A stretch of DNA of 41,806 nucleotides from a virus (IMGVR_UViG_2711768061_000003:1-41806); one strand, 5' to 3'. Shown: positions 1 through 41,806, counted from the first letter of the stretch. Translations and numbers: made by a program. The notes: generated by a model not told the origin, from the letters alone.

Positions 1-1182
1 ATGCTCACCGTTAAGCAGATTGAAGCAGCAAAGCCGAAAGAAAAACCATACCGCCTTCTCGATGGTAATGGCCTGTACCTTTATGTCCCTGTATCAGGGA
101 AAAAGGTATGGCAGCTTCGCTACAAGATTGACGGTAAGGAGAAAATCCTGACCGTCGGAAAATATCCGCTTATGACTTTGCAGGAGGCAAGGGATAAAGC
201 ATGGACCGCGAGGAAAGACATCTCGGTTGGCATCGATCCGGTAAAAGCGAAAAAGGCTTCGTCTAACAACAATTCCTTTAGCGCCATTTACAAGGAATGG
301 TACGAGCACAAGAAGCAAGTCTGGTCAGTAGGCTATGCAAATGAACTTGCCAAAATGTTTGATGACGACATTTTACCCATCATCGGCGGTCTTGAGATTC
401 AGGATATTGAGCCGATGCAACTGTTGGAAGTAATCCGCAGATTTGAAGATCGCGGTGCAATGGAGCGAGCCAACAAAGCACGCAGAAGATGCGGCGAGGT
501 TTTCCGTTACGCTATTGTCACCGGAAGGGCTAAATATAACCCGGCACCTGACCTTGCTGACGCCATGAAGGGATACCGCAAGAAGAACTTCCCGTTTCTT
601 CCTGCAGACCAGATACCGGCATTCAATAAAGCACTGGCAACATTTTCAGGAAGTATCGTATCGCTCATTGCGACCAAAGTTTTACGCTACACAGCCCTAA
701 GAACGAAAGAGCTTCGTTCCATGCAATGGAAGAACGTCGATTTTGAAAACAGGATTATCACCATCGACGCCAATGTGATGAAGGGACGCAAAATTCATGT
801 GGTTCCTATGTCAGACCAGGTAGTTGAACTTCTCACTACGCTAAGCTCAATCACTAAACCAGTGTCAGAGTTTGTTTTTGCCGGGCGCAACGATAAGAAG
901 AAGCCAATCTGCGAGAACGCGGTATTACTTGTGATCAAACAAATCGGCTATGAGGGTCTGGAAAGCGGTCACGGATTCAGGCATGAATTCAGCACGATTA
1001 TGAACGAGAACGAATGGCCTGCTGATGCTATTGAAGTGCAACTGGCACATGCCAACGGCGGATCTGTGCGCGGTATTTACAACCACGCTCAGTATCTCGA
1101 TAAGCGCAGAGAAATGATGCAGTGGTGGGCGGACTGGCTTGATGGAGAGAAAAATAGCGCAACTTTTAGGCCACATCAATGA
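1..1182 (+). CDS. int: tyrosine integrase, P4/IntS family
   Basis: 393-aa ORF starting at window position 1; translation closely resembles E. coli CPS-53 IntS as recalled; C-terminal catalytic region with R...HxxR...Y-type motifs (HGFRHEF, YNHAQY). Confidence 0.95.
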   Translation: MLTVKQIEAAKPKEKPYRLLDGNGLYLYVPVSGKKVWQLRYKIDGKEKILTVGKYPLMTLQEARDKAWTARKDISVGIDPVKAKKASSNNNSFSAIYKEWYEHKKQVWSVGYANELAKMFDDDILPIIGGLEIQDIEPMQLLEVIRRFEDRGAMERANKARRRCGEVFRYAIVTGRAKYNPAPDLADAMKGYRKKNFPFLPADQIPAFNKALATFSGSIVSLIATKVLRYTALRTKELRSMQWKNVDFENRIITIDANVMKGRKIHVVPMSDQVVELLTTLSSITKPVSEFVFAGRNDKKKPICENAVLLVIKQIGYEGLESGHGFRHEFSTIMNENEWPADAIEVQLAHANGGSVRGIYNHAQYLDKRREMMQWWADWLDGEKNSATFRPHQ

Positions 1183-1354: not shown

Positions 1355-3142
1355 ATGGAACTGAAATACAGACCCGAAATTGATGGGTTGAGAACATTAG
1401 CTGTTTTACCTGTTATCTTTTTTCATGCAGGTGTTCAATGGATTCCTGGCGGCTTTCTTGGAGTAGATGTTTTTTTTGTTATTAGTGGTTTTTTAATTAC
1501 CAGCATTTTGCTGAAAGAATGCAGCAATAGAACATTTACATTCTCTGGGTTTTATGAGAGAAGGGTTCGTAGAATTGCGCCTGCATTAATTCTAATGACA
1601 TCAGTAATATTCATTATATCATTATTTATGATGGTTCCATATGACCTAAAGAATCTAGGCCAATCAGTTGTTGCAACAATTTTTTCAGCAAACAATATAT
1701 TATTGTACTTAACGTCAGGATATTGGTCTACAGCATCTGAATTTAAACCATTGTATCACACATGGAGTCTTGCTGTAGAAGAACAGTATTATCTTGTAGC
1801 CCCTGTAATAATATATATAATTTACTCAATAAATCATAATAAACTAATAAAGAATAGTTTTATGTTTTTACTGGTAATATCAATTGCCAGTTTTTTATAT
1901 GCAACAATTACAACAGTGCATAATATGGAGTTTTCATTTCTTATGCTCCCTTCAAGGGCGTGGGAGATTGCTCTTGGTGGGGTTGCCGCTATTGCGCACT
2001 ATAAAATAAAAATAAAAAGTAACATCTTATCATACCTTGGTTTTTTATTGATAATATCAAGTTACTTCCTTGTGAATGGTAAAAAATCACACCCTGGATT
2101 TGAAACATTATTTCCAGTTCTTGGTGCATGTTTGTTTTTAATGCATTCAAATGCATCTAAAGGAATTGGAAAGATCATGTCAATAAAACCAATTGTGTTA
2201 TGTGGCATGATAAGTTATTCGCTATACCTTTGGCATCAACCTGTTTTTGCATTTATAAGATTAAACTCAAAATTTGAACCGTCAACAACATATTTTATCG
2301 CATCCATTCCTTTAATTTTTATTATATCGTGGATGTCTTATGTTTTTGTAGAAAAACCATTCAGAAACAAGAGAAAAACATCTACAAAAAAAATCTTATC
2401 ATATACATTAGCATTTTCGTTGGTGTTATCAGCATCAGGAATTTTGATGCACAAAACATATGGATTGCAAAATGTCAGGCCTGATCTTGCATATGGAGGA
2501 AATCCACAGGAGTATGTGGATACCCCGAAGAAATTAAAGAATATTGAGTTCTCAGACAATGGAAAGAAAATATTAATCATGGGTAACTCATATGCGAGAG
2601 ATTTAATTAATGCAATATCTACAAAGATTAAAACAAATGATCTTAATATTGTATATTTTGAGGGTGGATGTGATTGGTCAATAGATAATAAAAATAAATT
2701 AGATTACTACTTGAATGACTCAGACATTATTTTATATTCGGAGAATTGGGGTGCAGGCGACTATAATAATAACGTTGAAAAGTTAAAACACTGTTACGAT
2801 TACATAAAGTCAAAAACAACTGCAAAAATGTACTTGATTGGCACAAAAAACTTCGGGTATAACAATAACTTTGCTGTTAACCTGTCTCTTAATGACAGAG
2901 TTTTAGCAAAAACATACCCGCTATCAAGATATATAGAGTTTAACAATAAGGCGAAAATGATTTTTGGCGATGACTACATAGATTTGTTTGACCTTATAAA
3001 AGACAACAATGGAATGGTTAGAGTTTTTGATGAGAATGGCAAATTTTTATCATATGATGCAAACCATCTAACGAAATATGGAGCAAGTTACATTGGAGAA
3101 GTCTTAGACAAAAAAACAGACTTACTTCAATCTTTGAAATAA
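1355..3142 (+). CDS. membrane O-acetyltransferase (acyltransferase-3 family N-terminal domain with SGNH-like C-terminal domain); likely O-antigen or polysaccharide modifying moron
   Basis: 595-aa ORF; N-terminal motifs typical of acyltransferase-3 (DGLRTLAVLPVIFFHAG, VDVFFVISGFLIT); multiple hydrophobic segments followed by a soluble C-terminal domain; markedly AT-rich versus neighbouring genes; sits in the int-tailspike moron slot. Confidence 0.8.
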   Translation: MELKYRPEIDGLRTLAVLPVIFFHAGVQWIPGGFLGVDVFFVISGFLITSILLKECSNRTFTFSGFYERRVRRIAPALILMTSVIFIISLFMMVPYDLKNLGQSVVATIFSANNILLYLTSGYWSTASEFKPLYHTWSLAVEEQYYLVAPVIIYIIYSINHNKLIKNSFMFLLVISIASFLYATITTVHNMEFSFLMLPSRAWEIALGGVAAIAHYKIKIKSNILSYLGFLLIISSYFLVNGKKSHPGFETLFPVLGACLFLMHSNASKGIGKIMSIKPIVLCGMISYSLYLWHQPVFAFIRLNSKFEPSTTYFIASIPLIFIISWMSYVFVEKPFRNKRKTSTKKILSYTLAFSLVLSASGILMHKTYGLQNVRPDLAYGGNPQEYVDTPKKLKNIEFSDNGKKILIMGNSYARDLINAISTKIKTNDLNIVYFEGGCDWSIDNKNKLDYYLNDSDIILYSENWGAGDYNNNVEKLKHCYDYIKSKTTAKMYLIGTKNFGYNNNFAVNLSLNDRVLAKTYPLSRYIEFNNKAKMIFGDDYIDLFDLIKDNNGMVRVFDENGKFLSYDANHLTKYGASYIGEVLDKKTDLLQSLK

Positions 3143-5508: not shown

Positions 5509-6432
5509 TCAGTAGTTATGTACTGAAGGAGGTAATTCTTTATTCTTAAGTCTCATCCATGCGGAAAGATTCGTTGGTCCTTCTGGCTCATTGATATCAA
5601 CATCTCGTGTGTGATTGATTAAAACGTCCCTCGCCATTCCGATAACATACGAGAACTCATGACCGTAGTCGTAGCATCTGCCGGAATAGTTCGATTGAAT
5701 TTGTTTTAATGCCGGATACAGTTCGCGGAATAATGCCTGTGAGCGGTTGGCATAATCCCATAACCATACAAGGCTGTTTGCTTCTTTTGCAGAAAGCTCG
5801 TTGGTTTTCTTCTCTTGTTTGCCAATGAACTCACCTTCAAGCGGAACGCGAGCAGCAAGTGACAGTGCTTCGGTAAACTGCTCCTCACTGATTTCTTTGT
5901 ACGAACATCCAAAATGGGATTTCAGTGACGACCACATGGTGATCATCGCCTTAGCCTGTTTTTCTTTTGGCAGAGACTGACCGCGACTCATGACGAGTTG
6001 TTTAATGGCTTCCTGCTGTTCAGTGGTGATTTTACCCGGCAACGCTTTTTTAGCTTTGCGTGGGTTAACTACATGGCCTTTAGTCCAGTACTCGTATAGC
6101 ACATCGTCACACTCTTCTTGATACTGGATTACATTGTCGCGGATTTCAGGGCGGACTTTGTTAGGGCTGATGGTTTGCAACCAGCCATTCAGTTTACGTA
6201 AAGCAAGGCAAATCATGGTCTGCACACCGCCAACTGAAGGTATTGCGATTTCCACAATACCTTTAGCAAATCTTTGTTTTAACTTTGTAAACTGTGAAGC
6301 CCAATCCATACCCATTCCCTCAACGATAGGTTTCATTGGGGTGTACGGCTCACCGTTGTGATTGACAACATAAAGCTCTGCGCCGTGGAATGGTACATTG
6401 ATAGTAGATACTGCTGTTGCTATACTTTTCAT
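5509..6432 (-). CDS. ant: antirepressor Ant (immI region)
   Basis: 307-aa ORF immediately downstream of arc on the same strand; size and position match P22 Ant; N-terminal antirepressor-like domain. Confidence 0.85.
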
Positions 6433-6500
6433 GTCGTTAATTCCTATGCGTGGTTTTACGATATCGAAGCCCTGACTGTTCCCGCAGTTGGGGCTTCAAC
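6420..6500 (+). ncRNA. putative sar-like antisense RNA covering the ant ribosome-binding site (approximate bounds)
   Basis: Inference from P22 immI biology; strong hairpin at ~6465-6497 in the arc-ant intergenic region on the strand opposite to ant. No promoter verified. Confidence 0.3.
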
Positions 6501-6501
6501 T

Positions 6502-6663
6502 TTACGCGCCAATGCGTCCTTCCTTCTTAAAACTTTCCATTACTCTCTGATAAATCTCAGAGTTAACAGACCGACCATTCTCTTCCGCCACCTTGCGTAC
6601 CAAATCCAATACTTCTTTAGGCCACCGCAAATTGAACTGCGGCATTTTGCTCATTCCTTTCAT
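6502..6663 (-). CDS. arc: Arc repressor (ribbon-helix-helix)
   Basis: 53-aa product MKGMSKMPQFNLRWPKEVLDLVRKVAEENGRSVNSEIYQRVMESFKKEGRIGA, near-identical to P22 Arc as recalled; the longer ORF from 6726 would overlap the Arc operator. Confidence 0.9.
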   Translation of the reverse strand: MKGMSKMPQFNLRWPKEVLDLVRKVAEENGRSVNSEIYQRVMESFKKEGRIGA

Positions 6664-6678
6664 ATTCACCTCACAATA

Positions 6679-6697
6679 TGGGTCCACGGTGGACCTA
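6679..6697. promoter_or_regulatory. Mnt operator (palindrome GGTCCACGGTGGACC core)
   Basis: Near-perfect palindrome in the arc-mnt divergent promoter region, matching the P22 Mnt operator as recalled. Confidence 0.7.
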
Positions 6698-6705
6698 TTG
6701 AGAAT

Positions 6706-6726
6706 ATAGTAGAGTGCTTCTATCAT
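6706..6726. promoter_or_regulatory. Arc operator (ATAGTAGAGTGCTTCTATCAT)
   Basis: 21-bp partially symmetric site in the arc-mnt intergenic region, matching the P22 Arc operator as recalled. Confidence 0.7.
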
Positions 6727-6753
6727 GTCAATACACTAACTTGGAGTGATGGC

Positions 6754-7008
6754 ATGGCTAGAGATGATCCGCACTTTAACTTCCGCATGCCTTTGGAAGT
6801 AAGAGAAAAATTAAAATACAGAGCAGAGTCAAATGGTAGATCAATGAACTCAGAATTGTTGCAAATCGTCCAAGATGCTCTATCGAGACCATCTCCTGTA
6901 AAAGGTTATCGCAATGAAGCTGAACGATTAGCCGAGATGCAGGCTGAACAGTTCAAGTCTGTGGTATTTGAGACACTTAAAAACATGTATGGCAAGGATG
7001 CAAAATGA
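6754..7008 (+). CDS. mnt: Mnt repressor
   Basis: 84-aa product MARDDPHFNFRMPLEVREKLKYRAESNGRSMNSELLQIVQDAL..., closely resembling P22 Mnt as recalled; it is the C-terminal part of the 6358-7008 track ORF, whose upstream portion is antisense to ant. Confidence 0.9.
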   Translation: MARDDPHFNFRMPLEVREKLKYRAESNGRSMNSELLQIVQDALSRPSPVKGYRNEAERLAEMQAEQFKSVVFETLKNMYGKDAK

Positions 7009-31921: not shown

Positions 31922-32572
31922 ATGAATACACAACTGATGGGTGAGCGTATTCGCGCTCGCAGAAAAGAACTCAAGATTAGGCAGGCTGCCCTTGGCAAGA
32001 TGGTTGGCGTGTCTAATGTTGCTATTTCCCAATGGGAGCGATCTGAAACTGAGCCCAATGGCGAAAACCTATTGGCCTTAGCCAAGGCTTTGCAGTGCTC
32101 CCCTGATTACCTGTTGAAAGGAGAGGATAGTCTTTCAAACATTGCCTATCACAGCAGGCATGATCCAAGAGGTTCGTATCCTCTAATTAGTTGGGTAAGC
32201 GCAGGATGTTGGATGGAAGCTGTAGAGCCATATCATAGGCGTGCAATAGATAACTGGTACGACACAACGGTAGATTGTTCTGAAGACTCTTTTTGGCTCG
32301 ACGTTAAAGGCGATTCAATGACTGCCCCGGCAGGACTGAGTATTCCTGAGGGGATGATTATTCTCGTCGACCCAGAAGTCGAACCACGTAATGGAAAGCT
32401 GGTAGTCGCCAAACTTGAAGGAGAAAACGAGGCGACATTCAAAAAGTTAGTTATTGATGCCGGTAGAAAATTCCTGAAACCACTCAATCCACAATACCCA
32501 ATGATTGAAATCAATGGGAACTGTAAAATCATTGGCGTTGTCGTTGATGCCAAGCTAGCAAACCTTCCTTAA
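31922..32572 (+). CDS. c2: C2 repressor (P22 immC, LexA-like autocleaving repressor)
   Basis: 216-aa product with N-terminal HTH (QAALGKMVGVSNVAISQWERS) and C-terminal S24 peptidase-like domain (GDSM...K), matching P22 C2 as recalled. Confidence 0.95.
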   Translation: MNTQLMGERIRARRKELKIRQAALGKMVGVSNVAISQWERSETEPNGENLLALAKALQCSPDYLLKGEDSLSNIAYHSRHDPRGSYPLISWVSAGCWMEAVEPYHRRAIDNWYDTTVDCSEDSFWLDVKGDSMTAPAGLSIPEGMIILVDPEVEPRNGKLVVAKLEGENEATFKKLVIDAGRKFLKPLNPQYPMIEINGNCKIIGVVVDAKLANLP

Positions 32573-32659: not shown

Positions 32660-32700
32660 ACTTGACCAATAAATTAAGAAGTCTTAAATTTAAGCCATCA
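32660..32700 (+). promoter_or_regulatory. OL/PL region (P22-type operator AATTAAGAAGTCTTAAAT overlapping a TTGACC -35 element)
   Basis: Operator matching the same 18-bp pattern as OR; TTGACC at 32662-32667 with an AT-rich -10 candidate about 17 bp downstream. Confidence 0.55.
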
Positions 32701-32736: not shown

Positions 32737-32776
32737 GCTCTTTAACATCGACGGACTCTCAACCTAACCGTTGAGA
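32737..32776 (+). promoter_or_regulatory. putative nutL (boxA-like GCTCTTTAACA plus boxB-like hairpin TCTCAAC-CTAACC-GTTGAGA)
   Basis: Same boxA-like core as the putative nutR; the hairpin loop shares CTAACC with the nutR hairpin. Confidence 0.5.
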
Positions 32777-32886: not shown

Positions 32887-33159
32887 ATGGTAACCATTGT
32901 CTGGAAAGAATCCAAAGGTACGGCAAAAAGCCGCTACAAAGCTCGCAGAGCAGAACTTATTGCCGAGCGACGCAGTAATGAAGCACTGGCGCGAAAAATT
33001 GCGCTAAAGCTCTCTGGTTGCGTCAGAGCAGACAAAGCAGCATCACTAGGAAGCCTTTGCTGCAAGAAGGCAGATGAATGCAGTGGAAGTATTTGCCTGC
33101 CAAACGTAGCTATTTACGCGGCAGGCTACCGGAAATCAAAACAACTGACGGCGAGGTGA
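32887..33159 (+). CDS. N-like antiterminator (P22 gene 24-like)
   Basis: 90-aa basic product with arginine-rich N-terminus (GTAKSRYKARRAELIAERR) and C-terminus YAAGYRKSKQLTAR resembling P22 gp24 as recalled; AGGAG RBS upstream of the chosen ATG. Confidence 0.8.
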   Translation: MVTIVWKESKGTAKSRYKARRAELIAERRSNEALARKIALKLSGCVRADKAASLGSLCCKKADECSGSICLPNVAIYAAGYRKSKQLTAR

Positions 33160-33983: not shown

Positions 33984-34352
33984 ATGTCAAACATCAAAAA
34001 ATACATCATTGATTACGACTGGAAAGCATCAATAGAAATTGAAATCGACCATGACGTAATGACAGAGGAAAAACTTCACCAGATTAATAATTTCTGGTCA
34101 GACTCTGAATACCGACTCAATAAACACGGCGCTGTATTAAATGCTGTATTAATCATGCTGGCGCAACATGCTCTGCTTATAGCAATTTCGAAAGACTTAA
34201 ATGCATATGGTGTTGTTTGTGAGTTCGACTGGGATGATGGAAATGGTCAGGAAGGATGGCCTCCAATGGATGGTAGTGAAGGAATAAGAATTACCGATAT
34301 CGATACATCAGGAATATTTGATTCAGATGATATGACTATCAAAGCCGCCTGA
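33984..34352 (+). CDS. acidic hypothetical early protein
   Basis: 122-aa ORF in the PL operon downstream of the N-like gene; no recognisable motif. Confidence 0.5.
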   Translation: MSNIKKYIIDYDWKASIEIEIDHDVMTEEKLHQINNFWSDSEYRLNKHGAVLNAVLIMLAQHALLIAISKDLNAYGVVCEFDWDDGNGQEGWPPMDGSEGIRITDIDTSGIFDSDDMTIKAA

Positions 34353-34562: not shown

Positions 34563-34699
34563 CCATCAATCACCAGATGCTTCGTGCGGCACAAAACAAA
34601 GCAGTAATAGCCAGATTTATTGGTGATTCCAAAATGTGGCTTGAAGCAAATAAAGAGATGAAATTAGCTATCAACCTTCCATGGTATCGCAGGAAATGA
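34547..34699 (+). CDS. small protein, possibly Kil-like
   Basis: 50-aa ORF containing ARFIGDSKMWLEA, resembling the lambda Kil motif FIGDEKMF as recalled; overlaps the neighbouring small ORFs. Confidence 0.4.
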   Translation: MRNEIAINHQMLRAAQNKAVIARFIGDSKMWLEANKEMKLAINLPWYRRK

Positions 34700-34854
34700 G
34701 TTTTACAGATAACTGGTCAGACGAAGAATTCATTCGTCAGATGAAAGAATTAATCGGTAACGAAGGAGATATTCATGTCACTTGCAACCACAGTGAAGGA
34801 GAGCAAGTTACAGAGGCGCATGTACACGCAGAAAGCTCTCTGGTATCGACATAA
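34696..34854 (+). CDS. small hypothetical protein upstream of erf (possible arf-like accessory recombination gene)
   Basis: 52-aa ORF whose ATG overlaps the upstream stop (ATGA). Confidence 0.3.
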   Translation: MSFTDNWSDEEFIRQMKELIGNEGDIHVTCNHSEGEQVTEAHVHAESSLVST

Positions 34855-34955: not shown

Positions 34956-35561
34956 ATGAGCAAAGAATTTTACGCAAGACTGGCAGCTATTCAGGAGAAT
35001 CTGAACGCGCCAAAGAATCAGTACAACTCATTCGGTAAATATAAATACAGAAGCTGCGAAGACATTCTTGAAGGCGTTAAGCCGTTACTGAATGGCCTGT
35101 TTTTATCAATCAGCGATGAAGTTGTGTTGATTGGTGATCGGTATTACGTGAAAGCCACGGCAACTATTACCGATGGCGAAAACAGTCATACGGCAACCGC
35201 CCTTGCACGAGAGGAAGAAAGCAAGAAAGGAATGGATTCTGCACAAGTTACGGGAGCTACAAGCTCTTATGCACGCAAGTATTGCCTCAATGGTTTGTTC
35301 GGCATTGATGATGCGAAAGATGCAGATACCGACGAGCATAAACATCAGCAGAACGCAGCAGCAAAGCAATCAAAACTATCACCTACACCTGAACAGGTTC
35401 TAAAAGCATTCACTGACGCAGCATTGCAGAAAAACACCGTGGAAGAGCTTAAACAGGCGTTCGCCAAAGCGTGGAAGATGCTCGAAGGCACACCGGAGCA
35501 GCACAAAGCGCAGGACGTTTACAACATCAGACGAGACGAATTAGAAGGAGCTGCTGCTTAA
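34956..35561 (+). CDS. erf: Erf-family single-strand annealing recombinase
   Basis: Position and size as P22 Erf; start chosen at the internal Met (MSKEFYARLAAIQENL...). Confidence 0.8.
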   Translation: MSKEFYARLAAIQENLNAPKNQYNSFGKYKYRSCEDILEGVKPLLNGLFLSISDEVVLIGDRYYVKATATITDGENSHTATALAREEESKKGMDSAQVTGATSSYARKYCLNGLFGIDDAKDADTDEHKHQQNAAAKQSKLSPTPEQVLKAFTDAALQKNTVEELKQAFAKAWKMLEGTPEQHKAQDVYNIRRDELEGAAA

Positions 35562-35944
35562 TGGCACATTCGATTACTGTAAGACTAAACAAGCCCGCAA
35601 GAGAGTTTCAGGCCGGGGAAAATATCGGATTCAACATCCGTGCTGGCGTTCAGTATTACGATCGCCAGACAAAAAAGAAAGAATGGACAAACTACAGCGC
35701 CGTTGTATTTGCCAAGCCAGGAGCGCAAGCGGATTACTACCGTAGCGTTCTTGTTGAAGGTGGCATTGTGGAAATTACCGGAGAAAACATCAGGGTTGAT
35801 GTTTATCAGGGGCAAAATGGTCAATCAATTACTCTTGAATTACTGAATGCAAAGATTGGATTTACAGCTTCAGGAAATGGCCCGCAGCAGCAAAGTAGTA
35901 ACCAGCAGAACACTCCTGTATACGACGATTCCATCCCATTCTGA
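35561..35944 (+). CDS. SSB-like protein with C-terminal acidic tail DDSIPF
   Basis: 127-aa product; ATG overlaps the erf stop; Gly/Gln-rich linker and C-terminal ...YDDSIPF resembling the bacterial SSB tail (DDDIPF). Confidence 0.55.
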   Translation: MAHSITVRLNKPAREFQAGENIGFNIRAGVQYYDRQTKKKEWTNYSAVVFAKPGAQADYYRSVLVEGGIVEITGENIRVDVYQGQNGQSITLELLNAKIGFTASGNGPQQQSSNQQNTPVYDDSIPF

Positions 35945-35967
35945 TATAGAAAAATAAGGATTCCATT

Positions 35968-36264
35968 ATGCCAGCGCCTCTGTATGGTGAGGATGACCCA
36001 CGCCGATGTTCCGGCAATTCCGTATCGGAGGTGCTGGATAAATTCAGAAAAAACTACGACCGGATAATGTCTCTACCGCAGGAAACGAAAGAGGAAAAGG
36101 AATTTCGCCACTGTATATGGCTTGCAGAGAAAGAAGAACGCGAGCGAATTTACCAGACATCAATCCGACCATTCCGCAAAGCCACATATACCCACTTCCC
36201 TGAATATATCGACCCGCGCCTGCGTAATTACCGCTCACGCTATGGCGCTATCAGTAATGACTGA
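35968..36264 (+). CDS. hypothetical protein (possible Abc2-like anti-RecBCD by position only)
   Basis: 98-aa ORF downstream of the erf module. Confidence 0.4.
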   Translation: MPAPLYGEDDPRRCSGNSVSEVLDKFRKNYDRIMSLPQETKEEKEFRHCIWLAEKEERERIYQTSIRPFRKATYTHFPEYIDPRLRNYRSRYGAISND

Positions 36265-36274
36265 GGAATTAACA

Positions 36275-36565
36275 ATGAAAACAATGAAGCTAAACATCGA
36301 CCTCGGAAAATACGTTATTACCGGAACAAAACACGATCTGATTCTTAGCGAAAGAGGAATTATCAAAGAAGGCGAGAATGCAGGGAAAGAAACACTAAGC
36401 CGTATCGGTTATTACAGCAAGTTTGAGCATCTGGTTAAAGAGTTATGCAACCGTGAAATCCTGTTATCTCAGGCGCAGACGCTACAGGATATTCAGCAAC
36501 ATATCGAGACTTTAGGTGTGTCACTTAGCATGGCTATTGACCAGTTCGTGGAGAGTAAATCATGA
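36275..36565 (+). CDS. hypothetical protein
   Basis: 96-aa product from an internal ATG of the 36122-36565 track ORF ([11 protein letters not shown]...). Confidence 0.5.
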
Positions 36566-36726
36566 GAGGGCTTGCATACAATCCCGGCATTCTTCCGGCA
36601 GAAATGATTATTCGCCAACGCGTAAAGCCAATGCCATCGAGAGAGGAATTGCTTAAGAGAAATTCTTTTCCATCAGTGAATCAAAACAAATATCTGAATG
36701 CGATGTTGCGGAGTGGGAAGAAATGA
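36562..36726 (+). CDS. small hypothetical protein
   Basis: 54-aa ORF coupled by ATGA overlaps to both neighbours. Confidence 0.3.
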
Positions 36727-37139
36727 AACAAATGTCACTAATTGAGATGGATGGATTCCTGAAAGGTAAATGCATCCCCCGAGATTTAAAGGTTAACGAA
36801 ACAAACGCTGAATATCTGGTGCGTAAATTTGCTGAAGCGGAGGCCAAGTGCGCGGCGCTGGCGGCGGAGAATGCGGAAATGCATGAAACTATTGAAGCCG
36901 TTCGGAGTGTTGCGGATAACTCCAGTGGAATTGCCGGATGGCATTTGAATGGCGATATCGCTACATGGGAAGAGATTCTTCCTGAAATTAACGATATCGA
37001 AACCACAGCCACCGACGCTTTCCTGGCTGAAGTTCGGGCGCAGGGGGTGGAAATGTTTGCGGAGTGTGCATACACACTTGAACATCATGATCACGCAGTA
37101 GCTTTTGCCGCCGAGCTACGCAAAGGAGGCAACCAGTGA
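36723..37139 (+). CDS. acidic hypothetical protein
   Basis: 138-aa ORF in the coupled early-left gene array. Confidence 0.5.
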
Positions 37140-37828
37140 GTGAAATTAACTATCAGGCACTGCGTGATGCGGCAGAGAAAGCAACGTGGGGAGACTGGGA
37201 CTCATATAAACCACACCGTGGCGCACGTGGTTATGAGGTCCGACTAAGTAGTCAGGCCATTGCGCAACACGTTCTGAAAAACAACGCTGAATTTATTGCT
37301 GCCTTTAATCCAAAGGTTGCTTTGGCACTACTGGATGAATGGGAAAGAAACCAGCAATACATCAAACGCCGCGACCAGGAGAACGAGGATATTGCGCTTA
37401 CGGTTGGGAAGCTGCGCGTTGAGCTGGAAGGCAAAGACAGCAAAATAGCCAATCTTACCGCCGAACGCGATGCTCTTCGTGAAGGTGAGATGGGCGACGC
37501 TAGGCATAGCAACACACGGGCCGCAGCTGATATCTACTTCCAACTGGTCGAGGAGTGCGAAATTCCTGCTGGCGGATCTCTGGTCGAGTACGTTGACGAT
37601 ATGCGCGAGAAGCTGGAAGCCGCAGAGAAGCGCATAGCAGAGTTAGAAAGTGATTCTCAGGCACAAAAGTTAGTTGAAGCAATCATTGTTGCGATAGAAA
37701 ACGAACAGGAACGTCTTTTTGATGAAGATTACCTAATGGATTCGAAAGAATGCATTGACGTAATTCGTGAAGAAGTAAAGCGATGGAATGATTCCCGCAC
37801 CGCTGGCATTCGCATCAAAGGAGAGTGA
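37136..37828 (+). CDS. Ead/Ea22-like protein
   Basis: 230-aa ORF; N-terminus EINYQALRDAAEKATWGDW and coiled-coil middle typical of Ead/Ea22-like proteins of lambdoid phages. Confidence 0.65.
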   Translation: MSEINYQALRDAAEKATWGDWDSYKPHRGARGYEVRLSSQAIAQHVLKNNAEFIAAFNPKVALALLDEWERNQQYIKRRDQENEDIALTVGKLRVELEGKDSKIANLTAERDALREGEMGDARHSNTRAAADIYFQLVEECEIPAGGSLVEYVDDMREKLEAAEKRIAELESDSQAQKLVEAIIVAIENEQERLFDEDYLMDSKECIDVIREEVKRWNDSRTAGIRIKGE

Positions 37829-37829
37829 T

Positions 37830-38417
37830 ATGACCCCTTTAACCGATAAGAAACAGTATCCCAGCGAGCAATATCTTAATGAGCTGATCACCAACATAGA
37901 GTTTGCTGCAAGGGCACCAGTTGAAGTCGTGAGAGCAATGGCAGCAGAGCTACAGAAGCGGCGCGAAGCTGATAGCGCAGAACCAGTTGCTTATATTTTC
38001 AAACATCCGGCCGGAAAATTATTCTGGGCTTTGACGGATGAAAGCAATAAAGATCAATCGGACGTTATTCCTGTTTATGCTGCCTCACCTGCACCGATAG
38101 CGTCGGAGGCCATTGAAAACGCTATTGAATACATCCGCAGTATCGTTTTTCACATCGATGAAGACGATTACCACGGCAAACATATTGCGTATTTCATGCG
38201 ACAAGCATTGGCCTGGCTGGAAGGGCATTCATGCAGTGATGACAGTCAGGGCAAATCCGATAATTCACCATTGCCGCGCTACCAGGTGATCGAATTAACA
38301 ATGCTGGTTAAACAATTGGTCAGCCAACTGAAAAAAGCAAAACCTGATTGCAAATTACCTGATAGGGCGATGGATTATCTTTTGCGAAACGGACTGGTAA
38401 GTGCGGAGGGGGTTTAA
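37830..38417 (+). CDS. hypothetical protein
   Basis: 195-aa product from an internal ATG (MTPLTDKKQYPSEQYLNELI...). Confidence 0.55.
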   Translation: MTPLTDKKQYPSEQYLNELITNIEFAARAPVEVVRAMAAELQKRREADSAEPVAYIFKHPAGKLFWALTDESNKDQSDVIPVYAASPAPIASEAIENAIEYIRSIVFHIDEDDYHGKHIAYFMRQALAWLEGHSCSDDSQGKSDNSPLPRYQVIELTMLVKQLVSQLKKAKPDCKLPDRAMDYLLRNGLVSAEGV

Positions 38418-38419
38418 CG

Positions 38420-38983
38420 ATGACCATTTCTACAAAAAAGCCTCTTTATGCTGAGGTTCACAATGTTCCTGATGATTATGAGTTCACTGACGAGGAACTA
38501 AACAGAATTATTGCAGGTGATATGTTCACTCCTCGTCAGGACGCAATAATGGCACGGGAGATACAGAAACTCCGCGCCGCCATGCTTCATGGTGCAGAAC
38601 CTGTAAAACAGACTTACAAGTTGCCTCCCCTGTCATCCAGCGAAGTAAACGAAGCGGCATGGAGATTACACAACATGCTGACTGAATGCATCCCTCTAAA
38701 TGGTCATCAGTTCAACAATCTGAAGGGTTGGTTCTATGAGGCGTTAAAGGTCGCAATGCGCAACTATCCGGTAACTCCGGATGGTTGGATAAGATGTAGT
38801 GATCGAATGCCGGAAGACACCAAAATGTTACTGGCATTTAGTCAAGGTGAAATCGTGGCCGCATATTGGAACTGGGTTGTAAATCCAATTGATTACAAAA
38901 AATATAGAGCTTTCACGTATTTATCAGGAAATATCTTGGATGACGTAACTCACTGGATGCCGCTACCAGAGCCTCCACTTTGA
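38420..38983 (+). CDS. DUF551-like domain protein
   Basis: 187-aa ORF; C-terminal WIRCSDRMPE...THWMPLPEPP resembles DUF551 domains common in enterobacterial prophages. Confidence 0.6.
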   Translation: MTISTKKPLYAEVHNVPDDYEFTDEELNRIIAGDMFTPRQDAIMAREIQKLRAAMLHGAEPVKQTYKLPPLSSSEVNEAAWRLHNMLTECIPLNGHQFNNLKGWFYEALKVAMRNYPVTPDGWIRCSDRMPEDTKMLLAFSQGEIVAAYWNWVVNPIDYKKYRAFTYLSGNILDDVTHWMPLPEPPL

Positions 38984-39079
38984 AAGCGAAGCTTATACAT
39001 ATCTTTTACATCAGCAATCTATTGTTAATCTCCAATCAATGTTACGTTGTCATCTCACTCATGCTTTGGAGGTAGTGAT

Positions 39080-39259
39080 ATGTCTTGTCCAAAATGCGGT
39101 TCTGGAAATATTGCAAAAGAAAAAACAATGCGTGGATGGTCTGATGATTATGTGTGCTGCGATTGCGGATACAACGACTCTAAAGACGCATTTGGAGAGC
39201 GTGGTAAAAACGAGTTTGTCAAAATTAATAAAGAACGCGAAGGCAACGAAAAAAGCTAA
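39080..39259 (+). CDS. small zinc-ribbon protein
   Basis: 59-aa product with CPKCGSG...CCDCGY (two CxxC pairs); GAGG RBS upstream of the internal ATG. Confidence 0.5.
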   Translation: MSCPKCGSGNIAKEKTMRGWSDDYVCCDCGYNDSKDAFGERGKNEFVKINKEREGNEKS

Positions 39260-39324
39260 TTTATTTATTCATATATGAAAACAATGTAACCAATATTCGA
39301 ATTGAAGAACTGAAAGAACACCAA

Positions 39325-39347
39325 GCCGCCTGATGGCGGTTTTTTAT
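39325..39347 (+). terminator. putative rho-independent terminator
   Basis: Hairpin GCCGCC-TGAT-GGCGGT followed by a T-run. Confidence 0.5.
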
Positions 39348-39359
39348 TGGAGACAAGAA

Positions 39360-39704
39360 ATGTCAGATTTGGCTATGAAGATTTTGAAATGGCAATCGAC
39401 TGGCGATGTCGGCATCAGTAGCGCAACTCTTGCCTCAATCGCATGTGGACTGAAAAAGAATATCTATGGTCATCACTTCGGCGCTCCACATGACGCAGCC
39501 GATTTCCGACGATGCGTTGCACTTGTTGAGCAGATTCCAGAAATCAGAGATTCATTCAACAAGGTTGCAAAGCGCGTTCCGGCATTCAAAGGAATCCTCA
39601 ACGAATGGGATTCACTCGTTGCTCTGTTGAAGTCTGAAATGAAGATACACGGAAACAAAGCACCAGAGACTTACAGAAGAATTAGCGAGTTACGCAAGGA
39701 CTAA
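39360..39704 (+). CDS. hypothetical protein
   Basis: 114-aa product from an internal ATG with GGAGA RBS, just downstream of the terminator. Confidence 0.5.
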   Translation: MSDLAMKILKWQSTGDVGISSATLASIACGLKKNIYGHHFGAPHDAADFRRCVALVEQIPEIRDSFNKVAKRVPAFKGILNEWDSLVALLKSEMKIHGNKAPETYRRISELRKD

Positions 39705-39763
39705 CCACAGCCTCACATTCGATGAGGCATTTTCATTTATCAAGATATCCAGACCTACCATCG

Positions 39764-39785
39764 CCGCATCAATGCGGTTTTTTAT
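39764..39785 (+). terminator. putative rho-independent terminator upstream of xis
   Basis: Short hairpin (CCGCAT...ATGCGG) followed by TTTTTTATT. Confidence 0.4.
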
Positions 39786-39828
39786 TACCTGATTTGCAGG
39801 TTCGATTCCCTATTCGGAGATAGCACTC

Positions 39829-40029
39829 ATGCAACACGAACTACAGCCTGATTCCCTGGTTGATTTGAAATTCATCATGGCTGATACTGGCTTTGGTAAA
39901 ACCTTCATCTACGACCGGATTAAGTCCGGCGACCTGCCAAAAGCCAAAGTTATCCACGGACGAGCAAGATGGTTATATCGTGACCATTGTGAATTCAAAA
40001 ATAAGCTCTTAAGCCGCGCCAATGGGTAA
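39829..40029 (+). CDS. xis: excisionase/regulator, AlpA family (MerR-like HTH)
   Basis: 66-aa ORF with AlpA-type HTH (DLKFIMADTGFGKTFIYDRIKSGDLPKA); last phage gene before attR; AlpA-type excisionases typically pair with P4-family integrases. Confidence 0.7.
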   Translation: MQHELQPDSLVDLKFIMADTGFGKTFIYDRIKSGDLPKAKVIHGRARWLYRDHCEFKNKLLSRANG

Positions 40030-40101
40030 AATAGCGGGTAAAATATTTCTCACATCTAAAAAACACCATTCCAATCAATCCCCTGCCACCTCAAGTAGAT
40101 G

Positions 40102-40116
40102 TCTGCAGGGGACACC
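40102..40116 (+). other. attR core: 15-nt match to the 3' end of tRNA-Arg (argW-type), CTGCAGGGGACACCA
   Basis: Matches the T-stem 3' half, acceptor 3' strand and ACCA of E. coli argW as recalled; sits between the last phage gene and the host permease gene. Confidence 0.6.
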
Positions 40117-40558
40117 AGATACCCTTCAAACGAAATCTACCTTCACCCCGTAAAAGATGGGTTTGGCAGCACACTTGCCTTATATCTACTCATTTTTACT
40201 GCAACAGGTTGAAATCTCAGCACTGTCAGAAAGCGCTGATGACTAAACAGCCCTGGGCCGGGCGATGTAACCATCACACAGAATCCTGATAGCGAAATAT
40301 GGCGTGACTCGATACTTCACTCCGCAATGCATTCCTTGATGAATTCGCAGGACCGTGATACACGGGACAGGTCACTGAATGACGACAATGTCCTGGAAAT
40401 CAGCGAACCGCGCATCTGAAGTACATTTGAGCGACTGTACCAGAACATGAATGAGGCGTTTGGATTAGGCGATTATTAGCAGGGCTAAGCATTTTACTAT
40501 TATTATTTTCCGGTTGAGGGATATAGAGCTATCGACAACAACCGGAAAAAGTTTACGT

Positions 40559-41806
40559 CTATATTGCTGAAGGTACAGGCGTTTCCATAACTATTTGCTC
40601 GCGTTTTTTACTCAAGAAGAAAATGCCAAATAGCAACATCAGGCAGACAATACCCGAAATTGCGAAGAAAACTGTCTGGTAGCCTGCGTGGTCAAAGAGT
40701 ATCCCAGTCGGCGTTGAAAGCAGCACAATCCCAAGCGAACTGGCAATTTGAAAACCAATCAGAAAGATCGTCGACGACAGGCGCTTATCAAAGTTTGCCA
40801 CGCTGTATTTGAAGACGGATATGACACAAAGTGGAACCTCAATGGCATGTAACAACTTCACTAATGAAATAATCCAGGGGTTAACGAACAGCGCGCAGGA
40901 AAGGATACGCAACGCCATAATCACAACTCCGATAAGTAATGCATTTTTTGGCCCTACCCGATTCACAAAGAAAGGAATAATCGCCATGCACAGCGCTTCG
41001 AGTACCACCTGGAATGAGTTGAGATAACCATACAGGCGCGTTCCTACATCGTGTGATTCGAATAAACCTGCATAAAAGACAGGAAAAAGTTGTTGATCAA
41101 AAATGTTATAGAAAGACCACGTCCCCACAATAAATATGACGAAAACCCAGAAGTTTCGATCCTTGAAAACTGCGATAAAATCCTCTTTTTTTACCCCTCC
41201 CGCATCTGCCGCTACGCACTGGTGATCCTTATCTTTAAAACGCATGTTGATCATCATAAATACAGCGCCAAATAGCGAGACCAACCAGAAGTTGATATGG
41301 GGACTGATACTAAAAAATATGCCGGCAAAGAACGCGCCAATAGCATAGCCAAAAGATCCCCAGGCGCGCGCTGTTCCATATTCGAAATGAAAATTTCGCG
41401 CCATTTTTTCGGTGAAGCTATCAAGCAAACCGCATCCCGCCAGATACCCCAAGCCAAAAAATAGCGCCCCCAGAATTAGACCTACAGAAAAATTGCTTTG
41501 CAGTAACGGTTCATAAACGTAAATCATAAACGGTCCGGTCAAGACCAGGATGAAACTCATACACCAGATGAGCGGTTTCTTCAGACCGAGTTTATCCTGA
41601 ACGATGCCGTAGAACATCATAAATAGAATGCTGGTAAACTGGTTGACCGAATAAAGTGTACCTAATTCCGTCCCTGTCAACCCTAGATGTCCTTTCAGCC
41701 AAATAGCGTATAACGACCACCACAGCGACCAGGAAATAAAAAAGAGAAATGAGTAACTGGATGCAAAACGATAGTACGCATTTCTGAATGGAATATTCAG
41801 TGCCAT
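40559..41806 (-). CDS. cscB: LacY-family oligosaccharide:H+ symporter, sucrose permease CscB-like (host gene)
   Basis: 415-aa 12-TM protein with LacY-family sequence pattern; start codon at the window edge (41806); the csc locus is known to lie near argW in sucrose-positive E. coli. Confidence 0.8.
   Translation of the reverse strand: MALNIPFRNAYYRFASSYSFLFFISWSLWWSLYAIWLKGHLGLTGTELGTLYSVNQFTSILFMMFYGIVQDKLGLKKPLIWCMSFILVLTGPFMIYVYEPLLQSNFSVGLILGALFFGLGYLAGCGLLDSFTEKMARNFHFEYGTARAWGSFGYAIGAFFAGIFFSISPHINFWLVSLFGAVFMMINMRFKDKDHQCVAADAGGVKKEDFIAVFKDRNFWVFVIFIVGTWSFYNIFDQQLFPVFYAGLFESHDVGTRLYGYLNSFQVVLEALCMAIIPFFVNRVGPKNALLIGVVIMALRILSCALFVNPWIISLVKLLHAIEVPLCVISVFKYSVANFDKRLSSTIFLIGFQIASSLGIVLLSTPTGILFDHAGYQTVFFAISGIVCLMLLFGIFFLSKKREQIVMETPVPSAI

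Follow-up and report, generated by a model that had tools for sequence, protein, structure and literature searches.

Analysis of a 41,806-nucleotide (nt) viral DNA stretch (IMGVR_UViG_2711768061_000003:1-41806; hereafter, the window) demonstrated that positions 36275–39704 carry eight open reading frames (ORFs), designated O1 to O8, between the anti-RecBCD gene abc2 and the excisionase gene xis. Probably, the array forms a PL-driven, N-antiterminated set of small effectors that are independent and exchangeable and that bind proteins of the host. The evidence comprises the gene structure, the homologies and the mosaic composition of the array, all of which were observed directly. Two members stand out: O3, a relative of the anti-defense protein Oad2, and O8, a representative of a widespread phage protein family. 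P22 workers know this segment as the "ea" region, and in lambda it is called the "exo-xis" region.

Gene structure of the array

The eight ORFs are real genes. All of them lie on the plus strand, at the coordinates given in the initial annotation, and each matched a PHROG family at an E value of 1e-31 or lower. The reading frames are all intact in the window, with ribosome-binding sites (RBSs) and coupled starts. According to Pfam analysis, DUF5405, DUF2737, Ead_Ea22, and DUF551 domains were above threshold in the array, and Anti-RecBCD_p2 was above threshold for the upstream abc2. The earlier labels Ead/Ea22 (98 bits), DUF551 (73 bits), and zinc ribbon (CPKC...CCDC) therefore hold, and DUF5405 and DUF2737 can be named in addition. 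When the array was compared with homologous loci, synonymous codon changes equaled or exceeded non-synonymous ones, with totals of 11:1 for O1 and 32:18 for O8, and a ratio of approximately 3:1 for O2 at each locus. The ratio was roughly 1:1 for O4, O5, and O6. Comparison of O1–O8 with each other indicated that they are not paralogs.

The junctions were read directly from the sequence. O1/O2 and O2/O3 overlap by ATGA and O3/O4 by GTGA, and spacers of 10, 1, and 2 nt separate abc2 from O1, O4 from O5, and O5 from O6, respectively. Wider gaps of 96 nt (O6 to O7) and 100 nt (O7 to O8) follow. Therefore, tight coupling is a property of six of the eight ORFs (O1–O6, plus abc2), and O7 and O8 stand apart; the chaining by 4-nt overlaps or very short spacers that had been described for the whole array applies to the first six genes and not to the last two. 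The terminators described earlier correspond to three terminator-like hairpins with T runs, one between O7 and O8 and two after O8. The PL-distal position was likewise borne out, as the array follows erf, a gp31-like gene, and abc2 and precedes xis in a putatively N-antiterminated operon.

PADLOC defense models gave no match to O1–O8 at an E value of 0.001 or lower, and one chance-level coiled-coil match appeared up to 0.01. Searches of PDB sequences with seven of the ORFs and with a profile of the O8 family returned nothing below an E value of 0.03. The NCBIfam scan yielded only sub-threshold zinc-ribbon matches, for O7, and no RNA family of Rfam was found in positions 35900–40600 at the gathering threshold or at an E value of 1 or lower.

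O3 belongs to the EaE/Oad2 family

Judged by its sequence and its position, O3 is a homolog of Oad2 (gp27 of phage HK446) and a member of the EaE family. Oad2 directly inhibits the P2 OLD abortive-infection nuclease, which has tRNase activity; it rescues OLD toxicity, abolishes OLD defense, and pulls down with OLD (bioRxiv 10.64898/2026.07.10.737580). The same study related Oad2 to P22 EaE and described it as fused at times to EaD/Ea22. O3 showed 44% identity to Oad2 in BLASTP (E value, 5e-36; 42–44% over comparisons). Its identity to HK97 gp37 was 83% in alignment, a tblastn comparison that spanned the full query gave 64.8%, and its homologs in phage records are annotated as EaE. The slot of O3 follows abc2, the DUF5405 gene, and the DUF2737 gene, the last of which it overlaps by ATGA. 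In the alignments of the family, a 38-amino acid (aa) N-terminus, one 12-aa motif, and an LRKGGNQ tail were conserved and two interior regions were variable; the codons of the tail in O3 hold the RBS and the GTG start of the next gene.

The genes around O3 closely resemble those of HK446 (JQ086372), with tblastn identities of 97% for CIII, 96% for Kil, 99% for Erf, 95% for gp31, and 96% for Abc2, followed by 100% for gp29 (O1) and 94% for gp28 (O2). A homolog of HK446 gp33 also lies upstream; its C-terminal tail differs from that of HK446 gp33, and its PHROG family is labeled "recombinase." The gp33 protein of HK75/HK446 is reported to trigger P2 OLD toxicity (bioRxiv 10.64898/2026.07.10.737580).

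O8 represents a widespread phage protein family

O8 matched phrog_1229 over its full length (E value, 1.6e-51), and gp32 of HK022 is a member of this family. The family shares the motif GxSS ... PxDPxDFxRC ... WDEL, with G18, S20, P43, D45, D48, R51, C52, and W83 invariant. A word-indexed search had suggested a narrow enterobacterial family, which was overturned by an exhaustive HMMER search: at least 1,858 representatives of 50% clusters were found at an E value of 1e-3 or lower, 181 of them at 1e-10 or lower. The phrog_1229 match was present in all O8 members tested. No Pfam domain was found in the tested members, longer fusion proteins included, and no NCBIfam model exists for the family. 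The structure of O8 was modeled as a seven-helix, all-alpha domain of approximately 110 aa with a predicted local distance difference test score (pLDDT) of 96, for which no analog was detected in the PDB.

The gene context of the family was surveyed from single distant members in IMG/VR phages. These members come from phages with widely differing hosts and lie in early clusters with DNA-metabolism genes. The O8-type gene follows downstream of either Bet/RecT with an exonuclease, a RecE-like exonuclease, or an SbcC-like gene, and at other loci it adjoins DNA methyltransferases or a RuvC-like gene. The family is a widespread and confidently modeled phage domain without annotation that recurs beside recombination modules, a type of locus for which a role as a hotspot of immunity triggers and inhibitors has recently been proposed. 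Tentatively, the O8 family could constitute a new class of early effectors, which would either influence recombination and repair in the host or act against a defense system that senses such interference.

Some distant members carry an N-terminal extension that resembles a zinc-binding CxxC...HxxC motif, and other members carry unrelated N-terminal extensions. In view of these extensions, the possibility that O7 and O8 are connected by a "Rosetta stone" link was considered; it was rejected, as the extensions are heterogeneous, their cysteine spacing is unlike that of O7, and O7 occurs without O8 in HK620.

Mosaic composition

The whole array was found in no phage record and in none of 5,426 complete Escherichia coli genomes. 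The best coverage was 44% in phage records and 69% among these genomes, of which 3,509 contain parts of the array. In a BLAST comparison with HK620, vB_EcoP-720R6, and three E. coli prophages, positions 37282–39349 were 99.2% identical to E. coli EC187792, which has a related prophage at the same site. O3 and O4 had only their ends and scattered segments in common with their counterparts.

O1 is a clean 282-bp indel cassette (36279–36560) relative to HK620. HK620, EC187792, and M172-1 are without O1, and abc2 joins the DUF2737 gene in them at the same ATGA. The O8 cassette (39350–39787, plus strand; 438 bp) is absent from HK620 and EC187792 in the alignment and is bounded by a 24-nt terminator quasi-repeat (39325–39348 and 39763–39786), the right copy of which is 83% identical. 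In both relatives, the TTTTTTATTG of the terminator runs directly into CCTGATTTGCAGG and then into xis; O8 and two hairpins are inserted at this point in the window.

In the interval between O7 and O8, the 3' end of a gene of the lambda p35/HK022 gp33 type also survives: its final 14 codons plus the stop codon, which falls in the loop of the terminator hairpin. HK620 has this relic too, and the similarity to phage 720R6 starts at 39286. The relic is a deletion or recombination scar. As a side observation, a second copy of the 12 nt with which O1 begins (ATGAAAACAATG) lies downstream of O7 (39275–39300 versus 36275–36300), with a stop codon directly after it; this copy may be a chance match or the trace of an earlier junction. 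It and the terminator quasi-repeat were the only noteworthy internal repeats.

Overall, regions of this kind have long been known; the block adds a new mosaic member to them and nothing categorically new. Its presence is not news, since the region is variable by textbook description.

The remaining genes of the array

The Pfam score of O1 for DUF5405 was 25.4 bits (cutoff, 21.6), and that of O2 for DUF2737 was 110.5 bits (cutoff, 25; E value, 3e-32). O4 matched Ead_Ea22 (PF13935) with 98.2 bits (cutoff, 27). It shared 53% identity with lambda Ea22 over the first 104 aa, the only part aligned by BLASTP (1–104), and ended in the same AGIRIKGE tail. The C-terminal domain of lambda Ea22 has been solved by nuclear magnetic resonance; a phmmer search with O4 against PDB sequences gave no match to it at an E value of 1 or lower, and the C-terminal part of O4 has no relative in the PDB. 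Ea22 is a tetrameric coiled-coil protein with variable, swappable C-terminal domains (PMC10834534), and an Ea22 N-terminus joined to an unrelated C-terminal part, as in O4, fits this published scaffold.

O5 matched phrog_6847 in its N-terminal part and phrog_660, phrog_60, and phrog_924 in its C-terminal part. It had 5,664 homologs, some of them named Eaa protein, and its residues 50–93 were 82% identical to HK022 gp36. O6 carries DUF551 (PF04448) at its C-terminus (72.6 bits; cutoff, 22; E value, 5e-20) and had 4,181 homologs; among the matches listed, all 120 carry DUF551. The AlphaFold2 model of O6 was confident only at approximately residues 121–185, a small beta domain (pLDDT, 72–82), and poor elsewhere (pLDDT, 53). 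Foldseek matches of O6 to Tudor/chromo domains, MicN, and YaeO were not significant (best E value, 0.33). PGAP calls the Ea22-like gene of EC187792 frameshifted and the next two ORFs partial; their counterparts O4–O6 are intact in the window, in the stretch that is 99.2% identical.

O7 corresponds to HK620 hkaD, named "Eag protein" by PGAP, and matched phrog_2945 (E value, 2e-31). It is improbable that this protein is a restriction-alleviation protein of the Lar/RalR type, even though its 59 aa are close to the 64 aa of RalR, its zinc-ribbon layout is similar, and it lies close upstream of xis with O8 in between, as ralR does in the Rac prophage with rcbA between ralR and xisR. The match of O7 to Pfam Lar_restr_allev (PF14354; E value, 1.5e-4) and the pairwise similarity to RalR (28% over 54 aa; E value, 0.008) also speak for a Lar/RalR-type protein. 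However, the Lar score of O7 was 22.3 bits, below the gathering cutoff of 28.6, whereas RalR itself scored 53.6; O7 was therefore not filed under Lar. An unrelated zinc-ribbon family, HVO_2753, outscored Lar on O7 with 23.2 bits, and the match of O7 to the Lar hidden Markov model ends before its C-terminal WN-R motif; such a degree of similarity is expected of a generic zinc ribbon.

The profile search gave no credible family for the minus-strand ORFs of the region. An antisense ORF inside O4 (37252–37515, minus strand) matched phrog_13760, and an alternative-frame ORF over O7 (39039–39278, plus strand) matched the same PHROG as O7. It is thus suggested that PHROGs hold mis-called frames from this region, and the match at 37252–37515 probably reflects mis-called frames in source genomes.

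Proposed mode of action and alternatives

The expression of the array and every activity of its products are predicted as follows. The genes would be transcribed early from PL, and the N-like antiterminator would allow read-through of the hairpins within the array and at its end. Translation from abc2 through O1, O2, O3, O4, and O5 to O6 would be coupled by the ATGA/GTGA overlaps and the 1–2 nt spacers. As modules, the genes are independent and exchangeable: O1 and O8 are clean cassettes, and in O3 and O4 variable interiors lie between conserved ends that also serve as RBS and start of the gene that follows. The block may comprise small effectors with protein-binding activity, whose targets would be host proteins in the early phase of infection or induction. 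O3 is a variant of the EaE/Oad2 family, whose HK446 member binds P2 OLD and keeps the nuclease inactive. O4 would provide an Ea22-type coiled-coil scaffold with a different C-terminal domain, O5, O6, and O7 would be further variable binding modules, and O8 would be a conserved all-alpha early protein of the kind found beside recombination modules. The clearest link would be to a conflict over RecBCD manipulation, in which the part of trigger would fall to abc2 and the gp33-like gene and that of inhibitor to the EaE/Oad2 family; an EaE/Oad2 variant fits a phage that has such RecBCD-manipulating and OLD-triggering genes.

In the chief alternative, which we regard as a serious but less likely explanation, the block would influence the choice between lysis and lysogeny as well as host physiology, in line with descriptions of the exo-xis region of lambda and Stx phages. 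Its proteins would have host regulators, replication, or stress responses as their targets and not immune systems. The effector and lysis-lysogeny readings are not mutually exclusive. O4 is a bona fide member of the Ea22 family, and Ea22 is reported to promote lysogeny in lambda and in Stx phages (PMC7093339, PMC10834534). The DUF551 domain occurs in YfdS of prophage CPS-53, which is linked to peroxide tolerance and which, with YfdQRT in multicopy, inhibits replication initiation (PMC4776307), and the block lies where lambda has its exo-xis genes. Nevertheless, besides the Ea22 N-terminus and the p35 relic, the window has no homolog of the lambda exo-xis genes orf60a, orf63, orf61, and ea8.5, the C-terminal domain of O4 is unrelated to that of lambda Ea22, and the EaE family has a direct anti-defense member (bioRxiv 10.64898/2026.07.10.737580). 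The block could also be mostly near-neutral mosaic cargo that is kept by recombination at conserved junctions rather than by function. We consider this the least plausible explanation. The extreme mosaicism, with no two records having the array in common, the cassettes present or absent between close relatives, the frameshifted and partial genes called by PGAP in EC187792, and the roughly 1:1 codon changes of O4, O5, and O6 would agree with such cargo, but purifying selection on O1, O2, and O8, the conservation of the O8 family with its invariant residues over at least 1,858 clusters, and the eight intact frames with RBSs and coupled starts argue against it.

Several observations weigh against the reading of the block as effectors directed at host defense. 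Published phenotypes of the lambda exo-xis region concern the lysis-lysogeny decision and not defense. Among the 200 accessory genes that Silas et al. screened in wild E. coli were one for a protein with DUF5405, as in O1, one related to the EaE-like C-terminal part of O3, and a fragment with DUF551, the domain of O6; the preprint text mentions no phenotype for them. In the library screen of HK446, only gp27 inserts rescued OLD toxicity (bioRxiv 10.64898/2026.07.10.737580), and it follows that O1 and O2, which match gp29 and gp28 almost completely, do not inhibit OLD. HK97 and HK75 have EaE homologs and yet are sensitive to OLD (bioRxiv 10.64898/2026.07.10.737580). In alignment, O3 and HK97 gp37 have an identical variable region 1; variable region 2 of O3 is short, unlike that of other members, and unrelated to that of Oad2, and a 21-aa coiled-coil stretch present in Oad2 is missing. 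It is doubtful that O3 is a functional Oad2 ortholog that binds the P2-type OLD tetramer, blocks its activation, and shields a phage carrying the gp33-like and abc2 triggers. Its place in the oad2 slot behind the gp29 and gp28 homologs, its similarity to Oad2 with the N-terminus, 12-aa motif, and LRKGGNQ tail common to both, and the gp33 trigger homolog in the window speak for such an ortholog. However, the HK75 homolog was reported to be insufficient for OLD inhibition at 54% identity to Oad2 (bioRxiv 10.64898/2026.07.10.737580), and the segments that separate active Oad2 from this inactive homolog are not conserved in O3. Inhibition of P2 OLD by O3 is unlikely because its variable segments differ from those of Oad2 and region 1 is that of OLD-sensitive HK97.

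We nevertheless favor the set of exchangeable effectors as the best reading of the array. The initial annotation had called this block the usual home of anti-restriction, anti-defense, and host-takeover genes, an interpretation that is plausible and partly supported by published work on a homologous family: the family of O3 includes Oad2, an OLD inhibitor, but it is precisely in the variable segments that O3 departs from Oad2. The description of the array in that annotation was for the most part accurate. Its statement that none of the genes has an assigned function is outdated for EaE (Oad2) and for Ea22 (pro-lysogenic; PMC7093339, PMC10834534). With an HK97-type first region, a unique short second region, and a shortened coiled coil, O3 is a natural EaE/Oad2 variant. 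It stands in an otherwise HK446-identical context of triggers plus inhibitor and is suited to mapping target recognition, whether the target is an OLD-family nuclease or another protein.

Prophage context

The window can be assigned by its sequence to a P22/HK620-like (Lederbergvirus-type) prophage integrated beside a cscB-like permease gene. As in HK620 (HK620/KplE1 type), attP separates xis from int in the phage genome, which explains why one of the two genes is found at each end of the prophage. A PL-like promoter, a nutL-like site, and an N-like ORF, all putative, lie upstream on the plus strand; therefore, the array is taken to be the distal part of the PL operon. The nutL-like site was assigned by analogy with the nut sites of lambda and P22. 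The AT3-SGNH protein encoded next to the integrase gene probably serves in lysogenic conversion as an O-antigen acetylase. ARAGORN found no tRNA gene in the whole window.

Table 1. Features of the prophage in the window, in order of position.
Feature	Position	Strand	Description
Tyrosine integrase	1–1182		Opposite prophage end from xis
AT3 acyltransferase with SGNH domain	1355–3142	+	595 aa; low GC, 0.30–0.36; adjoins integrase
P22-type immI region	5509–7008		sar RNA, ant, arc/mnt
Antirepressor gene (ant)	5509–6432	−	
Arc/Mnt-domain ORF	6358–7008		
sar antisense RNA	6434–6501		Rfam, 81.8 bits
cI-like ORF	31922–32572		Upstream of PL-like promoter
PL-like promoter (putative)	32662–32689	+	TTGACC, 16 nt, TTAAAT; read from sequence
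nutL-like site	32737–32775	+	boxA-like GCTCTTTAACA, 32737–32747; hairpin CTCAAC..GTTGAG, 32758–32775
N-like antiterminator gene (putative)	32887–33159	+	Arginine-rich N-terminus; N gene at same place in HK446 and HK620
DUF2528 protein	33984–34352	+	122 aa; early gene between sieB and cIII, PL operon
HK446 gp33 homolog	34696–34854	+	86% over 51 aa (34696–34848); phrog_2123, 1e-40
erf	34956–35561	+	99% to HK446 Erf
gp31-like gene	35561–35944	+	95% to HK446 gp31
abc2	35968–36264	+	Anti-RecBCD; directly upstream of array; Pfam Anti-RecBCD_p2, 3e-61
O1	36275–36565	+	96 aa; DUF5405/phrog_154
O2	36562–36726	+	54 aa; DUF2737 (HK97 gp38, HK620 hkaI)
O3	36723–37139	+	138 aa; EaE/HK97 gp37/Oad2 family
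O4	37136–37828	+	230 aa; GTG start; Ead/Ea22 family
O5	37830–38417	+	195 aa; "Eaa"-type; no Pfam domain
O6	38420–38983	+	187 aa; DUF551 at C-terminus
O7	39080–39259	+	59 aa; Eag zinc ribbon (CPKC-x19-CCDC)
Relic 3' end of lambda p35/HK022 gp33-type gene	39289–39333	+	TNIRIEELKEHQAA, stop; translation compared with lambda p35 and HK022_33
Terminator hairpin and T run, O7–O8 interval	39325–39339 (feature, 39325–39349)	+	−13.4 kcal/mol; z, −3.0
O8	39360–39704	+	114 aa; phrog_1229 family (HK022 gp32)
Terminator-like hairpin and T run 3' of O8	39710–39728	+	z, −4.1
Second terminator-like hairpin and T run 3' of O8	39763–39778 (feature to 39786)	+	z, −3.0
xis/TorI-like excisionase	39829–40029	+	Followed by cscB-like permease gene

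Comparison with known systems

The array resembles the hkaI–hkaD segment of HK620 and the eaE, eaD, eaA, and eaG genes of P22 (Lederbergvirus) in its operon position, its overlapping junctions, and its families (DUF2737, EaE-like, Ead/Ea22, DUF551, and Eag), as well as in the terminator after eag and the TorI-type xis. In contrast, HK620 is without O1 and O8, has hkaF where the window has O5, and shares only parts of hkaH, hkaG, and hkaE with O3, O4, and O6. With the lambda exo-xis region (orf60a, orf63, orf61, ea22, ea8.5, and p35), the array shares the position between the recombination genes and xis, the N-terminus and tail of Ea22, and the 14-codon p35 relic; it differs in the C-terminal domain of Ea22 and in the four genes that are missing from the window.

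The recT-ralR(lar)-rcbA-xisR segment of the Rac prophage also has small genes between the recombination genes and xis, including one for a 64-aa zinc-ribbon protein. However, O7 is below the Lar threshold, the window is without a homolog of RcbA (DUF1187), and no RalA-like RNA was found in the Rfam search of 35900–40600.

Compared with HK446, in which gp27 leads straight to xis-int and an SfX-type int adjoins xis, the window has five further genes (O4–O8) and its int at the other end of the prophage; O3 is only 42–44% identical to Oad2, and both variable regions differ. Nevertheless, the order of the genes behind erf-gp31-abc2 agrees fully, down to the 4-nt overlaps, a gp33 homolog lies upstream, and O3 is homologous to gp27 (Oad2) and occupies the same slot.

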